64,000 nt of DNA from Leucoraja erinacea (lineage: Eukaryota). Below, in pieces: positions 2,485-57,898 of the stretch. The stretch's first letter is position 1; each line of letters starts with the position of its first letter. Made by a program: the position numbers and the translations under genes. The stretch is taken from NCBI RefSeq assembly GCF_028641065.1, contig NC_073382.1, forward strand, positions 26,474,001 to 26,538,000. Direction: 5' to 3'. A model generated the notes under the pieces. It saw only the letters and a program-made list of their open reading frames with translations. It was not told where the DNA came from and made no database searches.

Positions 2485-3594
2485 TGTAAATAGCTCATTC
2501 TAAGCTTCCCCCAGTCTAGTTTCAGTCAATAAGATACTGAGTCAAGCATTTGCACATCTAAACTTTACTTTGGAAAAACACAATAACAGTTCCCCACTAC
2601 TATACCTAACCACCGCGGGTTCGATCCTTGTATCTGCTTGGCCAAGCCCTTCTAGCCTCTTGCAAGCAGAGACACTCCAAAAGGTCACACAGTCCCAAGC
2701 GTTCTTCCAGAAGATCGACACAGGACTTCGTGGGAGCTACCTTTTATAGGTCCCGAACCTTGAGGGGCCGAACCATATGGGGGTGGTCTCTTTACAGTCC
2801 AATAACAGATATCGCCAAGGACTGCTCTCACCCCAACCATGGACTGTTTACCCTCCTACCATCCGGGAGGCGCTACAGGTCTCCCCGTTGCCGGACCAGC
2901 AGGTCCAGGAACAGCTTCTTCCCTGCGGCTGTCACACAACTCAACAATGTACCTCGGTGACTGCCAATCACCCCACCCCCCGGACACTCCTCCCACAGGA
3001 AAATACACTATGTCTGTATACATGTAAATAGATTTATTTATTGAAATCATATTCTATGTCGCTCTTCCAGGGAGATGCTAACTGCATTTCGTTGTCTCTG
3101 TATTGTACACTGACAATGACAATTAAAGTTGAATCTGAATCTGAATCTGAATCCGGATATCAATTAACACAGCACATGATAGACATTTCCCTAACCCAAT
3201 AATGCAGTGACCAATACATGGTATTCAAACGGAGCTTCTGGAAGGAAGCAAACATAGCAACGTTTGACCAAATATTCAAGAAACCCAGACAAGGCTCAAG
3301 ACTTAACCCAATCAACATCTAGCAAAGTAAAGCTTTGCAACAATATTTACAATGTGTATGTTTGCTTTGCATTCACCCAATCCGTTTCATGCAATTTACA
3401 CCTAATTGTCAGAATCTGCAGATGTCCCATTCTTTCTCTGCAACTCTTATCTGGGCTCTAGACAAGCTGGCACCATTCTGCAGCTTGTCCCATTTCTGCA
3501 GAAGGCACATTTAAATTGACCAAATGGCCTCGCAGCACAGAAGCGTTTACTCAATTTTAGTGTCCCGGCATCCCCAATTTGACCAAAAGTAACA
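2485..3594 (-). mobile_element. Solo retroviral LTR related to the LTRs at 50824-51446 and 57130-57898, interrupted by a LINE 3' fragment
   Basis: Minus strand begins TGTTAC and ends TTTACA; colinear similarity to the 3' LTR, including CCTATAAAAG TATA region and GGGGAAGCTTAGAA end; 4-bp TSD ATTG at 2481-2484 and 3595-3598. Confidence 0.88.
2814..3155 (+). mobile_element. 5'-truncated Rex1/Babar-type LINE 3' end inserted in the solo LTR
   Basis: Encodes DCSHPNHGLFTLLPSGRRYRSPRCRTSRSRNSFFPAAV; (GAATCT)n tail; GATATC on both flanks (2808-2813, 3156-3161). Confidence 0.85.
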
Positions 3595-43700: not shown

Positions 43701-43935
43701 TGCCCCTGTCCCACTTAGGAAACCTGAATAGAAACCTCTGGAGACTTTGCGCCCCACCCAAGGTTTCCGTGCGGTTCCCGGAGGTTGCAGCTGGTTGCCG
43801 GAGGTTGCAGGTAGTGGAAGCAGGTAGGGCGACTGACAAAAACCTCCGGGAACCTCCGGGAACCGCACGGAAACCTTGGGTGGGGCGCAAAGTCTCCAGA
43901 GGTTTCCGTTCAGATTTCTAAGTGGGACAGGGGCA
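43701..43935. mobile_element. MITE, PIF/Harbinger-like, almost fully palindromic
   Basis: TGCCCCTGTCCCACTTAG...CGGTTCCCGGAGGTT arm and its reverse complement (about 85 bp each); right flank TAA, left flank TTC. Confidence 0.85.
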
Positions 43936-46579: not shown

Positions 46580-47455
46580 CGAGTCAGAACCATACAGCAC
46601 GGAAATGGACCATTCTGCCCAACTTGCCCATGCCAGACAAGGTGCCCCATATACACTAGACCCATCTTTTGAATTTGGCCATATTCCCCTAAACCTTTCC
46701 TATCCAATGCACTCTTCAAATGCCTTTTAAATGTTGTTACAGTACCTGCCTCAACTACCTCCTCTGGCAGCTCATACCATATACCCAGCACCCTTTTATG
46801 TGAAAAAGTTACCCATCAGGTTCCTATTAAATCTTTCCCCACTTAAATCTATGTCCCCTGGTTCTTGATTCACCTATGAGTAAAAGACACAGTTCATTTA
46901 TCTTACCTATTCCTTTAACGATCTTATATACCTCTATAAGATCACCCCTCATCCTCCTGTGCTCCAAGGAATAAAGTTCTAGCCTGCATAACCTCTCCCT
47001 AGAGCTTAGACCCTCAAGTCCTGGCTATATCCTCGTAAATCTTATCTGCACTCTTTTCAGCTAAACAGCATCCTTCCTATAGCAGGGTAACCAAAACTGA
47101 ACACAACACTCCAAATGCAACCTCACCAATGTTTTGTACAACTACAACAGAACACCCCAATTTTTATTCTCAATATATTTAGGAAGGAACTGCTGACACT
47201 TGTTTACACCAAAGATAGACACACAATGCTGGAGTAACTCAGAGGGACAGGCACCATCTCAGGAGAGAAGGAATGGGTGGAGTTTTGGGTCCAAGGAAGG
47301 GTTTCTAGCGAAATGTCACATTCCTACTCTCCAGAGATGCTGCTTGTCCTATTGAGTTACTCCAGCATTTTGTGGCTATCTTCTATTCTGAATATCCGGA
47401 CTGATGTAGACTCATGTACCAAAAGCTTTTTTAACCACCCTATCGACCTGTGGGT
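46580..47455 (-). mobile_element. CR1-like LINE 3' fragment with nested inverted Penelope-derived pair (about 47180-47385)
   Basis: GIWYELPEEVVEAGTVTTFKRHL; CR1 sequence resumes after 47385. Confidence 0.75.
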
Positions 47456-49991: not shown

Positions 49992-50680
49992 TTCTTGGTT
50001 CTTGGTTTCTTGGTCCTCCAAAATATTCCAAATAGAATTTAAACTGGAGGTGGTGAAGGGAAGGCTTAATCCAGAAAGGGTTATTGGGAAGAAAGAGCTA
50101 CTTTAAATGTAGTTGCATCTGGTTGGGTAACTATAGTAGGGTGGAGATTATTCCATGCTTTAATTGTGCGGGGGAAGAACAAATTGCTGTACACATCTGT
50201 CTTTGTAGCTGGGATCACAAATTGGATCAAATACCCTTGTCTGCTCCTAATTGGTTTGGGTTTGGTGTAGGTCTTGTAGTCTATGTCGAGCTGACCATTT
50301 AACATTTTGTAAAAACAGGTCAAACGGTGAGCTTCATGTCTGTCTTGGAGAGGGTTCCACCCCAAAGAATTCAGAAGTTTGGTGACACTCGCTTCTCTCT
50401 CATAGGTGTTAGTAACAAATCGAGCTGCCTGTCTTTGGACACGTTTGATGGAAGAAATGTTATTATTTGTGTATGGGTCCCATGCTGCAACTGTGTAGTC
50501 CAAATGAGGTCTAACGAGGGTGAAGTGTAGCTTCTCCTTGACAGAAGTTGAACAATGATGAAAGTTACGCCTCAAAAAGTTTAGGACACCTGTTGCTTTC
50601 ACCGTTGCATGATGAGTCTGACCATTCTAACGCAGATCATTCTGCAATTTGATGCCAAGATACTTGGTTTGTTTGGTGCC
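49992..50680 (-). mobile_element. 5'-truncated LINE of a CR1/L2-supergroup lineage distinct from the local CR1
   Basis: KYLGI, GVLNFLRRNF, LVRPHLDY...WDPY, RVQRQAARFV, LGWNPLQDR, FFPRTIKAWNNL; short 3' UTR and (CCAAGAA)n tail; 173-aa stretch without stops. Confidence 0.85.
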
Positions 50681-50823: not shown

Positions 50824-51446
50824 CCATGGCTAAAAATGGAGAGGCTATGACTTCAAAATGGGGTAAAATCTTCAGGGCTGCTGGGAGATTTGGTCAATTG
50901 GAATTGCTCTCTGCAGAGCTGGGACAAGCTGCGAAGAGGTGCTGGTGTGTCTGGAGTTTAGATACAATTTGCAAGCAGACTTTGCCGAGTTTTGATTGGA
51001 TGAGGCATTGAGCCTTGTCTGGGTTTCCTGTAGATCAGGGTAAATGTTTCTAAGTTGGCTTCCTTACGAAGTCCGTTTTGAATACAACGTATAGAGCTGT
51101 TGTATTATTGTGTTAGGGGAATGTTTGTTAAGTATGGGGTTAATCGATATCTGTAATTGGGTTATTAAGAGACCAACCCCATGTGGTTTGGCCCCTCGAG
51201 GTCCCGGGACATATAAAAGTACGCTACCATGAGGTTCAGCGTCGATCTTCTGGGAGAGCGCTTGGGACTGCTTGAAATTCTGGAGTGTCTCTGCCTGAGC
51301 AAGGCCTAGAGTACTTGAACAGGCAGAAACGAGGTACAGTAGTTGAACCGTAATGTGCTTTTGTTAAAATAAAATTTAGTTGTTTCAAGTGCTTGATTCT
51401 GTGTTTTTACTGAAACTAGAGGAAGCTTAGAAACGAGCAATTTACA
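50824..51446 (+). repeat. 5' LTR (5' terminus eroded, ~115-bp internal deletion)
   Basis: Aligns to 57140-57898; CATATAAAAG TATA near 51210; AATAAA near 51368; ends TTTACA. Confidence 0.88.
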
Positions 51447-51447
51447 T

Positions 51448-51465
51448 TGGGGGCTCGTCCGGGAT
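51448..51465 (+). promoter_or_regulatory. Primer-binding site, tRNA-Pro
   Basis: TGGGGGCTCGTCCGGGAT, the same 18-mer as the MLV tRNA-Pro PBS, one base after the LTR CA. Confidence 0.95.
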
Positions 51466-53420
51466 TTCAAAAGACCTCCAAACATGTTTGGAATCAAGGG
51501 TGTTGAGCTGCTTCGATCGCAAGTGCAGAAATCGGGCTCAAGGTGCAGTTTTAGCATTGATTTTCGGCACTTCGTTAGTCGGTGTAGATCGATCATTCAT
51601 GGGCTTGGGAAAGGGTCTAATCGAGATCATTAGAACAGAGTCTAGCAAGCACGGGGAGTACTTAGCATGGCTTTGTGTTAGGGGCCCATAAAAGCAGGGT
51701 GGGGTTAGAGGCCCTTTTCTGGGTTAGAGGCCCAAAACCTTGGTCGTAGTTGGCAGACTGCAGCTGCTTTAATGAGAGCCAAACGCGCTTCATCGGGCAA
51801 GGGGTGGCCCAGGGTTAGATTTGGTATCCAAATTGGTGGGGTATTAAAATACAGGTCTTGCCTTCAATCGGATCGTTGCCGGGAGCGCAAATTGAAAAGG
51901 TGTGTTCTGAAAATCGGCATCGATAACTCGCAGCGTGAAGCAGCTGGGCACTGGATCCTCAGTGCCCAGCAGAGAGAAGTGTCTGTGTGAAGGTATCTGT
52001 GTCTCTCCCTGAAGTGACAGACGAAGAGCCTCGAGAAGGTACTGGGCTTGGACAGACAGACTATAGATTGGCCGGAATACTCCAGTTCATTCAAGAATTT
52101 AACTGGGCAATTTTAGTTGATTCAAGAGCCCGCGTAGTAGAAGAGATACGCACTAAAATTAGGAGATCGAGTTCGAGTCTATAGTTGCAAAGCCAAATTT
52201 TCAAATAATGAATTTCATATTGGAATTCTGCCATTAAGGTGGAATTCGAATTCCTGTGTTTAGAACTTCGAAGTTGGTGCATGTCCGTGATCGATTACGA
52301 ATAGTGGCTGATCAACAGTGAATAGTAACCCTCTGGTCGATTGTTGATTAGTATCTGATAGCGAAGAGTACCTGAGAGACGGGAGCCTCCTTACTTGACG
52401 AAAAGTAATCCGAATAGCGAAGGGTACCCTTAATTCTGTCGAATTTAGAGAGGAGCGATAGAGGTCCCCCTTTAGAAGTCCAGTCTTGGCAGAGGGATAG
52501 TAACATTCGGGGGGGGGAGTAATTATTTAAGGAATAGTACCCCTCAGCAAAGAGTAAACTAGGAAGGGGAAAATCTTCGGTATCTGAGGGAGAGGTTCAC
52601 TGATAACAGCGTGACGCGGCGTTGAGATCGAGTGGTCATGAATTGTGCGCTAGTGCTTTAAATCATATTGTAAATTGTAAAAATCTAGCTTTTCGTATTG
52701 TCATAGGGTCAGGATTTTGTAAATATTCTGTGCATGTAAATAAACTTAGAGTATATTAAGAATTAAAAGTTATGATTTAGATCGTGTTAAATCCGCGGAC
52801 TGTCATTTGTGTTGCTGCTTGAGCGAGTGTTTACGGATTTAGAAACTTGAAGTAAGAGTGTGTTTAAGTTAGATATTTGTAATTGTTTAAGATTGTTTTG
52901 TAAGAATCTGAATCGGGGTGGTTCGATCATGGGTTGTACTCCTTCGACCCCTGCATTTGGGGAGGAGTCATCACGCTGATTGATTGCGCCACAAGGAAGA
53001 TTAATTAGAGGTGGGTGTACAGGATCATTATAGTTTATATTGGGGTGTGTTTTGGGTTATTGATAATCGGGGGAATATTTTTGTTCTTATTTATAGTTCT
53101 GTTAGCTTGGTTTGGGTTTGTCTGGCTGTGCAAACTTAAAGTGAATTGAGTGAGAGAGAGATTGCTGTGTGAGAGACTGCTAGTGGGACTTAGACTTGGA
53201 TTGAGATCCTTTGTTTGAAAGTTTGAATAATTGAATAGGAGTGACTGTGAGACAGTTGAAAGGAAGCGATTGCTAGAGTAAGTGTGAATCGGAAAGACCG
53301 TTGACCATTGTGTGGGAGAGATTCCATTGACCTTGGAGTCTGAGAGGAGGAGTGATTGAAAGAGGTGCTAGTGTCTGGAACCTTTATTTTGTAATTTGTG
53401 TTTTGACCATTGTTCCGAGA

Positions 53421-54870
53421 ATGGGGAATGTCTTTGAGAAGGATCGATCGAACCGTTTAGAAAGCCCGATAAGGATAATTTGAGGGGAGCTTCCAAATGA
53501 AGCAGATAGACCTGGAGGATTATCGGGGAAATTAAATGCAATTTTGAAAGACAAACTTTGGCCGTTGGGGGGACTAAAATCTTTAATAGGGATAAACTAT
53601 AAAGAGACGATCGTTAAAAAATATGGGAATAGTGAGGAAGTAAACAAGTTAATTGGGATGTGCAGGATATTCTTCACTAAAAGAAAAATAAACAAATAAA
53701 TAGTTTTGCTGTCCACCCTAAGAATGGCGGCTTGTAAATTGGGAATAGGAGAAAACGATAGAAATGTCTCAGGATATTTCAGAGTGGGGACAGGGAGAAT
53801 TAGTAAGCCAACAGCAGGAGCAGGAGAGAGTGTCATCTTTTCAAAGGGAGACTACTGAGACAGCACTTAAAGCGGAGGTGCCAACGAAGACTAAATCAGA
53901 TAAATTTGGTAAGAGTGAACCAGGGTCTGCACATCTTGAAGGGAGATATATTTATTATATGCCAGGGTGTGCAGAATTCTTCGGAGTGGAGCTAGAGCCA
54001 CAGTATTCCTCACCAAACACTCATGTTCTCAATTCGGAGAAACCATGCGCTGCCTGCGAGCAGGGCACATGGGAGGAGTCAGCGTTATCTTCGGCTCCTC
54101 CCCCTAAATTTAAATCTGAAATAGAGACATCGGGGAGAGATCTCTATCTCCTATGATTGCCCCACATGTGGAGGACAGTAGGGGTAATCAAGGAGCTAGA
54201 AGGAAGAATCCATCGACATGGGTACTGAAATTAATTAGGGATTCCAGTAGCAAGAGGATGAAAGAATCCTTCTTGAAGTACTGGGATAAAACAAATAGCC
54301 TTTCAGGGGGTGAGATAGGGGGAGAATGTAGATGGATTGATTTGGACATGGATAATATTATTATGTCAGAGCAATTCACGACGGAAGGGGATTTAGTAAG
54401 TAGACAATGTGTTTTTGTAGGGAGATGCCCTAATTTGGTATCAAATGTTTCCCAGACCACAGACAGTCAGACATCAAGGCAGCCTGGTTCAACGGCAGCC
54501 CGGAAATTAGAGGTTCAAATAAAATAAATAAGAACAAATGAGGAAAAGGAGGAAGAAGACCTCAAGGCCTGGATAGACCTCCCATTCAAAGAACCGACCT
54601 TTCCTCAGTTTGGCTGGTGAAGTTATAGAGCGCTCCGGCCTGATCAGTGTTACAGTTGTGGGGGATTGAGATACCTGAGTCAGTCGTTTCCTATGAGAGA
54701 ATATTATCAGGAAGGAAGGGGGCAGAGAAGGAGGCCATGGGATCACAAAAAGCGATGGATTCCAAGAGGGTACCGAGACTCTTGGAACCCCGAAGGTAGA
54801 GGACGAAAACACTGGCAGGGAGATCAGGGGGCAGGGACGTTCCAACAATCCAACCCATTTCGGTAGCCCT
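53421..54870 (+). pseudogene. gag: Disrupted gag-like region
   Basis: MGNVFEK...ESPIRII*GELPNE...KLWPLGG (Gly2 and a WPxxG matrix-like motif), later SAPPP and an Arg/Gly-rich segment (54666-54866); stops and frameshifts. Confidence 0.55.
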
Positions 54871-57115
54871 AACCTGCAATACCATCTATTAAAATTAAAG
54901 GCAGCCTCACTTGGCCTGAGAAACAGCATTATACATTAAAAAGAACACCACCCCTTCCAAGTAGGAGGAGATACATAGAATCCGACTCTCATAGAAACCT
55001 TCACTAAAAGGAAGAAACACGACAGGGAAACATAATAGCTAGCATGAGAAGGGATGGCAACTAAGGAATGGAAATGCCACTAGGGCGAGAAGAAACAAAC
55101 TTACCGTGCAGGAGGAATGGGAGTGGGGAAAGAAGATATTAAATTAATATGTTGCTGAGTTTGTGCCTGCAGGACAGTATATCGACGAGAGACTATCTGG
55201 GGAGTGAGGTAAAAGGATGCACAGACCCTTTAAGAATGGGAAGAAGACAGCAAAAGGTAATGTTGCTCCCCAGAAACAGGTGACCAGCAGGAAGAATTGA
55301 TACTGTCCTGCCCCTTTAAGACATTTGGGAGGGCCAGCAGGCAGAGCAATATGCTCCGCAGTATCCCCACTCCCTAGTAATTAAAAACTACCATCAGAAA
55401 GGAAGAAGAAAAAGACCTACCCAAGTGCCCAACTTTAATATCACCTAGCTATTGGTGAAAGAAAAGGAAGGAGAATAAAGGACATTTTAATCATCTTTGA
55501 AAGAAACAACACAGATGACTTTTGACGACTTCTAGGACAAGCCTCACTTTAAATAAAAAAACATTCCTCTGTGGTTTGGAGTAAAATACCTGAATTGTGT
55601 CTAAATTATGGGTATTAGAAATAAATTTAGACATTTCGGATTTGGTCTCGAAATTGTATGATGATGAATAGGAGGGACTTTAAACATATTTGAGATTTGG
55701 AATAGACTTGCGGAATCTGACTAAGGAATAATTGGAGTTTGATTATTAACTGACACTGTTATTATCTCGTCCTCAGAAAAGCAGACAAAGGTGGAAAGGA
55801 TTGTTTAAAGGGCATCAAGAAGGATGGAACTTGGGAAGATCTGGTAACGTGGAATTACTTGGGGAATATGAGAGTTAGAATTTGAATTGGGATTAAAACT
55901 GGAATTAAAATTGAAAATTAAAATGGGAATTGACATTGAAATTGGAGTGGAAGTGAAAATGGTGAAAAGAGGAACTATGAGCAGCAGGGCTACCCTTTAA
56001 GAAACCGGACTAAGGAATTATTCAGTCGTTAAGAACGAGTACAAGTAAGAACCCCTAAACAAAGAATGAAGCCAATAGAATAAAAGCGAGAACCCCAGAC
56101 AGAGAACGAAGCCAACATAGTTAAAAGCTAATAGAATAAAGAACCAACATAGTAGAGAATCAACATAGTAACGAGTTACCATAGTGAGGAGTGCATACAT
56201 AAATAGGAAGAGGTACTGAAGGAAAGACTTGGTAAACTGTAGGGATAAACATGAATTGTATTGAGAATAGCAGAGCCGATGCATATTTGCCCAATGGATT
56301 TGAATTGTTTAACCCTTGATGGTAAAGTGGCTTCTATTATCAAGGTGGAAAGAAATTGTCCCTGGATTTGGCATTCTTGATTGGATTTAGGATAAAATTG
56401 ATAATATTGGAAATTGATTGTTTAAATTTGAACAGCTGGGAATTCCACAGGAATTTGGAATGGAATTGTATTATCGGCTACAATGCTGTGGAATGCGAAG
56501 GATGAGATGGGCATTGAAATTTGAAACAGTAAATTGAAGGCTGAGACTGAATTTGGTTAAATTGGAACACATATCATGGTTTGCTTTAAATTTAAGTCAT
56601 GCATGTAGGGAAATCTGGACAGAACCCAGCTGAAATTGATATGATCACCTGTCATCGGATATACATATTATAAGGTCGTGTGAGTATGAAGAAGGCTAAT
56701 TAGGGACGATCCTAGAATAATTAAGAGTATATTAGGGAACAGAATAAGAATAGGGAATGTAATAGGTTTGAATAGGGATAGTATTGCGAATGTGTGGGAA
56801 AGCATGAGTGCATGATGGTAACTTGCTTAGCCCCAAGTTTAATGTCTAGGTTTTAGGTTCAATTGAGGAAGGTGATGGAAGACTGGGCAGTAACACGGAT
56901 GGAGGAGATTCGTGCCCACAAAAACTCGGGAGGTGAAGACTCCTCAGACAGAACTTGTGAAGTTATGCCCATGAAAACTCGGGGCGCTTGACAAGATTCT
57001 GGGAAGAAACATCATCATCTTGTGTTGCTAGATGGAAAATATAAAGCACACAAGTATATCTGGTTAGCTGATTGAGCCATTTTAGTTATCATAAATGATG
57101 TGTTATCATATATGA

Positions 57116-57129
57116 TAAAAAGGAAGGAA
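57116..57129 (+). promoter_or_regulatory. Polypurine tract
   Basis: AAAAAGGAAGGAA immediately before the TGTTAC start of the 3' LTR. Confidence 0.8.
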
Positions 57130-57898
57130 TGTTACTCCTGGCTAAATTGGAGAGGCTGGGAGTAAAATGGAGTAAAAGCTTCAGGGCTGCTGGGAGATTT
57201 GGTCAATTGGAATTGCTCTCTGTAGAGCTGGGGCAAGCTGCGAAGAGGTGCCAGTGTGTCTGGAGCTTAGATACAATTTGCAAGCAAAGAATGAGAACAT
57301 CTGCCAGCCCTGCTAATTAGGTGCAAAATGCATAGAATGGATTACATGGCTGCAAACCAGACATACACCTTGTAAATAATTGTAAATAATGTTGCAGAGT
57401 TCAACTTTGCTGAGTGTTGATTGGATGAGGTATTGAGCCCCGTCTGGGTTTCCGGTAGATCAGTGTAAATGTTTCTAAGTTGTCTTCCTTATGAAGTCCG
57501 TTTTGAATACAATGTATTGAGCTGTTGCATTATTGGGTTAGGGGATTGTCTGTTCTGTATGGGGTTAATTGATATCTGTAATTGGGTTATTAAGAGACCA
57601 CCCCTGTGGTTCGGCCCCTCGAGGTCCCAGGCCATATAAAAGTCCGCTACCACAAGGTTCAGAGTTGATCTTCTGGGAGAGTGCTTGGGACTGCGTGAAC
57701 GTCTGGAGTGTCTCTGTCTGAGCGAGGCCTAGAGGGCTTGAACAGGCAGACACGAGGATCAAACCCGCAGTGGGATAGGTGCAATAATTGAACTGTAATG
57801 CGCTTTTGTTAAAATAAAATTTAGTTGTTTCAAGTGCTTGATTCAATATTTTTTACTGAAACGAGTCTGGGGGGAAGCTTAGAAATGAACAATTTACA
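57130..57898 (+). repeat. 3' LTR (769 bp)
   Basis: TGTTAC...TTTACA termini, TATA (CATATAAAAG) near 57633, AATAAA near 57813. Confidence 0.92.

Follow-up and report, generated by a model that had tools for sequence, protein, structure and literature searches.

The long 5' leader of a decayed LTR element in the 64 kb window (the whole stretch of DNA analyzed) probably encodes a membrane micropeptide about 40 residues long, immediately ahead of what is likely to be gag, and an MGC start at 52929 in the same leader is best explained as a mutation of this copy alone. We are fairly confident that the hydrophobic frame at 53009..53149 was translated as a gene while the element was still replicating. 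Our confidence that its product was a functional membrane micropeptide standing on its own, judged from sequence features, is more modest and still on the favorable side. The original prediction had placed here a myristoylated single-pass protein of about 73 residues that might replace or supplement env. Its core, a small membrane-protein ORF 5' of gag in an env-less element, probably stands, but not in a 73-residue, FAST-like form.

The LTR element and its gag-like gene

The element lies on the plus strand at approximately 50827-57898. Its 5' LTR (50827..51446, start approximate) was recognized as a direct repeat with 57139-57898, and the 3' LTR (57130-57898) was assigned from the repeat match and the sequence. 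The pair shows 52 mismatches over 558 gap-free bases (K2P 0.10), and the 5' LTR is the shorter of the two; about 117 bases at 57287-57403 of the 3' LTR are missing from it. Directly after the terminal CA of the 5' LTR is a primer-binding site (51448..51465), which we take to be of the tRNA-Pro type, an assignment that comes from gammaretroviruses. A polypurine tract, identified from the sequence, is found at 57117-57129. The element has the two LTRs, primer-binding site, and polypurine tract that are one mark of class I (gamma/epsilon-like) endogenous retroviruses, the others being a reverse transcriptase that groups with gamma/epsilon viruses and a Gag homologous to retroviral MA/CA/NC. Six RNA molecules start at 51285 within the 5' LTR, about 70 bases past a TATA-like motif near 51211.

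Between the LTRs, a long leader that is poor in ATG codons (51466..53008) is followed by the hydrophobic frame, an ATG-free spacer (53150..53420), a gag-like gene (53421..54866), and a 3' internal region (54867..57116) in which sequence searches of Pfam and the PDB revealed no recognizable pol or env. Translated in its three forward frames, the element matched no Pfam family, and the reverse frames gave a single sub-threshold match (E 0.27) that lies outside the 3' internal region; for that region, nothing in the PDB matched the sequence of the three forward frames at E ≤ 10. The element is a decayed LTR element without recognizable pol or env. A low-complexity G/A/T repeat tract occupies 55870-55960 of its 3' internal region.

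Three-frame translation of 53421..54866 revealed stops and frame changes, an MG start at the candidate gag ATG (53421, 271 nt past the stop of the hydrophobic frame), and a degenerate Cys knuckle-like motif near 54648-54689. From its position, its MG start, and this motif, the gene is likely to be gag. Family and homologue searches with pieces of the gene gave no match, and a structure model of its product had a pLDDT of 31.5, so that the fold was unusable. A T-rich tract with an AG (53390-53420) stands directly 5' of the gag ATG, and a donor-like GT is present at 53150, just past the stop of the small frame; the listed RNA joints include no spliced read.

The element belongs to a multi-copy family: between 10,657 and 13,550 contigs per run, counted over the whole element, aligned to it in three contig runs. 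Contig depth over 52220-52700 and 56300-57020 was several-fold higher than over gag, which suggests that many internally deleted relatives keep only these parts, which are perhaps related to packaging.

A hydrophobic frame ahead of the gag-like gene

The frame that follows the stop codon at 53006-53008 is 46 codons long from stop to stop, has no start codon in the present copy, and is likely to represent an ORF of about 40 codons. It has some 36 hydrophobic residues, more than a single membrane span requires, and it contains a GxxxG motif, a central GG, and a Cys followed by a KLKVN tail. A single-sequence structure model, which is weak evidence for hydrophobic peptides, gave one helix spanning residues 2-45. 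The original prediction carried the caveat that DNA rich in G and T translates as hydrophobic by composition alone. This concern did not hold: the best 35-residue window has a Kyte-Doolittle mean of 2.73, a value that was reached in none of 3000 dinucleotide shuffles of the local stretch itself, and a 19-residue window gave P values of 0.004-0.011 in such shuffles. Three other stretches in the window are as hydrophobic, and all of them are microsatellites. These results support the conclusion that the hydrophobicity of the frame is not a product of its G/T-rich composition.

For evidence from the family, we used one RNA run and three contig runs, four of 24 listed runs, aligned to the present copy. 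Near the head of the frame, an in-frame start codon is present in 92-100% of the aligned related depth and in all five RNA reads. The leader around it is depleted of ATG codons: 51446-53008 contains 10, compared with 29.1 in shuffled sequences, and 53009-53420 contains none, compared with 10.5, whereas the gag control has 27 and its shuffles 28.8. Hardly any of the related depth carries the leader ATGs that the present copy has at 52208, 52772, and 52929. One near-fixed difference places a polar residue within the hydrophobic run. At one site, four of six RNA reads (with two start places) carry an in-frame stop inside the frame, indicating that the transcribed copy in that sample is broken. 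The first mate lies on the minus strand in 9 of 11 RNA reads, which in most stranded libraries corresponds to sense transcription.

We then considered the pattern of substitution among copies, for which each of the 40 listed differences (of 65) was classed singly. In the post-stop frame, 16 differences have a pooled share of 10-80% (a class picked after the table had been seen); nine of these are silent, six replace one hydrophobic residue with another, and one is of another kind. The corresponding probabilities were 0.036 for silent changes and 0.002 for silent and hydrophobic changes together, and the silent excess in the other five frames gave P values of 0.12 or more. The best run had nine silent differences of ten (scan-corrected P 0.004-0.05 over four thresholds). 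The near-fixed differences over the whole of the claimed ORF (n = 13) showed no bias, with 3 silent compared with 2.7 expected; most of these belong to the present copy itself and reflect decay after insertion, and so no bias was to be expected of them.

Some of the data would suit a non-coding G/T-rich leader in which the hydrophobic frame arose by chance and CpG decay produced the silent bias, a reading that we regard as unlikely. When four sites in CpG context were removed, the silent excess over the whole post-stop frame was lost (5/12, compared with 4.45 expected; P 0.48). The excess was also not significant when all listed differences were counted (15/40 silent, 11.1 expected; P 0.096), or all those after the stop (10/27, 7.9 expected; P 0.22). 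The internal stop in the RNA reads agrees with this reading, as does the outcome of the searches with the hydrophobic frame: there was no homologue at E ≤ 0.001 among 1.84 billion representatives and none in a further search restricted to sequences of 34-109 aa, and Pfam returned only a sub-threshold match to DUF2273 (E 0.78-0.91). One pattern of 23 nt was without a match in metagenome contigs. An accidental frame, however, fits poorly with a hydrophobicity that local shuffles do not reach, with a near-fixed in-frame start at the head of the frame within an ATG-poor leader, and with the finding that 15 of the 16 segregating differences are silent or keep a hydrophobic residue. With the CpG-context sites removed, silent changes make up 5/6 in the second half of the frame (P 0.025) and 0/6 in the first half, a split that was likewise picked after the table had been seen.

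Two other sources of the substitution pattern were examined and rejected. RNA structure showed nothing unusual (z +0.51), and alignment slippage within the period-6 G/T tract, inspected by eye at three sites, was not the cause of the third-position differences. Gaps were present in 7/24 of the listed pieces here and in 21/24 of those listed element-wide, a contrast of little weight because the element-wide pieces have roughly double the length and contain the present copy's own indels.

On the reading that we favor, a translated gene for a micropeptide, the full-length RNA would serve as the template for translation of the small ORF ahead of gag. Scanning ribosomes would begin at the small ORF in some cases and in others continue to gag, by leaky scanning or re-initiation, because there is no ATG between the two. 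The same arrangement, an ORF before gag with no intervening ATG, would serve a translated uORF that sets the level of gag translation and whose peptide is inert; we consider this decidedly improbable, as 35 hydrophobic residues and a silent bias in the changes are both superfluous for a pure regulator. The micropeptide itself is predicted to form one long hydrophobic helix, or else a tight hairpin that turns at the central GG, with the Cys/Lys tail as a predicted anchor; by general rules, the Cys may be palmitoylated and the C terminus cytosolic. Our guess is that it would self-associate through its GxxxG face and act as a viroporin-like or membrane-remodeling accessory, one that may have helped Gag particles to leave cells or pass between them. 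Bovine papillomavirus E5, paramyxovirus SH, and HTLV-1 p12 are very short, nearly all-hydrophobic membrane accessories that self-associate, and the likeness of the putative micropeptide to them would be one of size and composition only.

The MGC start and the 73-residue protein

The letters on which the 73-residue protein was based are present as described: an ATG at 52929 that opens MGCTPSTPAFG (52929..52961, plus strand) and fits the MGxxxS pattern, the TAG at 53006-53008, and a later stop at 53147-53149. The hydrophobic text is read in a different frame from MGCTPSTPAFG, and a joint product was proposed to arise by restoring one base in a G-run and by reading through the TAG. The aligned relatives bear out neither repair, and nearly all of them lack the start. 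At the second position of the ATG, 98.7%, 96.4%, and 95.8% of the depth in the three contig runs (21, 24, and 29 contigs) and 5/5 RNA reads have a different base, and a myristoylated N terminus is not supported. No indel at a share of at least 10% in 52915-53150 is among the differences listed for related copies. Of the 24 listed pieces (552 in total), 5 extend over the G-run by 31 letters on each side; 4 of these are gap-free, and the fifth is one letter short. As for the TAG, the sole difference at this codon among the 40 of 65 listed affects the third base (39%, 20%, and 10%) and leaves a stop, so that the copies aligned at this position retain one. The check that had been suggested, an alignment of family copies for an open 73-codon frame, thus came out against a single gene joining both halves, and the 73-residue myristoylated protein is refuted as far as the aligned copies go.

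The start at 52929 is likely to be a mutation of the present copy alone. When the upstream 120 nt were shuffled 5000 times, a start of the MGxxxS/T type appeared in 162 cases (about 3%), and six other places in the leader are one base away from such a start. The ATGs at 52208 and 52772 are likewise missing from nearly all of the related depth, indicating that the decay of this copy routinely generates new ATGs. The case shows a trap, in that what looks like a convincing start for myristoylation can be a mutation of one decayed copy. That the element nonetheless encoded a 73-residue, N-myristoylated, FAST-like single-pass protein in place of env is, in our judgment, highly improbable. In the present copy, the rarity of such starts in shuffles, the MGxxxS motif, and its position about 30 residues ahead of the hydrophobic run, a FAST-like spacing, speak for such a protein; the family data given above speak against it, as do the two K/R residues after the helix and the 5-residue tail, which fall short of the published polybasic pattern. 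A fusion of the glyco-Gag type was also considered and rejected; the frame differs from that of gag and ends in a stop at which no difference is listed.

The alignments cover the region around the stop unevenly. Depth at 53006-53008 is 20-42% of that in neighboring sequence, suggesting that other subfamilies differ around the stop and the start, and 5, 11, and 17 contigs in the three runs cease to align at 52959; the result for the MGxxxS/T start excludes such copies. Because most copies diverge over 53005-53030 and the 5' part of these contigs is not covered, the hydrophobic frame might be the membrane anchor of a longer protein with a different N-terminal part, made in other subfamilies or from a spliced transcript, for which acceptor-like AG sites are available at 52705 and 52822. 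We think such a protein improbable. There is no silent excess before the stop (2/6, P 0.58), and no RNA read supports a splice joint among the 15 of 374 joints listed element-wide or among the 2 of 2 at the ORF.

Comparison with known small membrane proteins

As described in a recent report, sORF2 proteins of Drosophila MDG1-group LTR retrotransposons and smORF2 of nackednaviruses are FAST-like proteins of 63-107 and 75-114 aa, respectively, that have an ectodomain some 30 residues long, in many cases an MGxxxS/T motif, a polybasic patch, and an amphipathic tail (10.1101/2025.03.14.642691). The FAST-like class is defined there by a length of 60-210 aa, an MGxxxS/T motif with an ectodomain of 10-50 aa, a single N-out/C-in transmembrane segment, at least three K/R within 15 residues past that segment followed by an amphipathic tail, a sense-strand position 5' of the capsid gene in an env-less element, and activity in cell-cell fusion or protrusion; the screens that it describes were made on Repbase entries from arthropods and on NCBI nr sequences of viruses (10.1101/2025.03.14.642691). 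The frame described here resembles sORF2 and smORF2 in its position, as a small membrane ORF on the sense strand upstream of a capsid gene (here a gene whose identity as gag was deduced as above) in an env-less element. It differs from them in that the predicted micropeptide has about 40 aa, no ectodomain, two Lys, and a tail of 5 residues. Its frame of 46 codons is below the published length range, which the 73-residue form would reach only with a start and a frame change that are absent from relatives; the MGxxxS/T motif occurs in the present copy only and out of frame; and the last 15 residues contain two K/R. By these features the peptide would not be a FAST-type fusogen. If it is real, small membrane ORFs before the capsid gene of env-less elements, as in nackednaviruses and the retrotransposons of insects, would also occur in a retrovirus-like family of vertebrates, and as the peptide is too short and plain for the published sORF2/FAST filter, a class of such genes may escape current screens. 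It is quite unlikely, but conceivable, that this is a vertebrate gag-only, env-less family in which a membrane micropeptide of about 40 residues allows capsids to move from cell to cell, or to enter the germ line, in the absence of an envelope, as a counterpart of sORF2 with a non-FAST architecture.

Among retroviruses of fish, the class I virus WDSV has an accessory ORF 5' of gag, Orf C, that is presumed to be translated from full-length RNA (PMC3185748). The position of the small frame is similar. According to the same description, 7 bases lie between the end of Orf C and gag, Orf C is longer (with a helix at residues 78-89) and targets mitochondria, and WDSV has pol and env, neither of which is recognizable here (PMC3185748). 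Homologue searches gave no sequence link between the micropeptide and Orf C. The class I endogenous retrovirus HERV-T also has a pre-gag ORF (PMC5388530); compared by description only, it is alike in position, and the description gives it no membrane character or function. Class I-like endogenous retroviruses are known in a cartilaginous fish (PMC4977317).

The zebrafish BHIKHARI elements (Bik-1 and Bik-2) are lokiretrovirus-related, gag-only endogenous retroviruses with a single long ORF, and the word "transmembrane" is absent from the main text of their description (PMC12067270). Judged from the internal sequence of one copy, the element analyzed here, LTR-bounded and multi-copy, may similarly be non-autonomous, with a likely gag and no recognizable pol or env. 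It differs in its primer-binding site, presumably of the Pro type, and in its extra small frame. Among titles and abstract openings, with most subscription papers, Repbase, and Dfam outside the scope, we found no literature on a peptide of this kind in a gag-only element of a vertebrate.

Elsewhere in the window, a diverged LTR of the same family lies on the minus strand at 2485-3558 and is 72-74% identical to the 5' LTR. No internal sequence was matched near it, it contains about 330 bases of other sequence, and it is probably a solo LTR. Just outside the 5' LTR, a stop-free frame of 181 codons on the minus strand (50081-50626) reads like what we take to be the end of a LINE reverse transcriptase. 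Two inverted repeats, at 43719-43918 and 47212-47382, have arms of 78 nt and 64 nt, respectively, that stand 43-44 nt apart.
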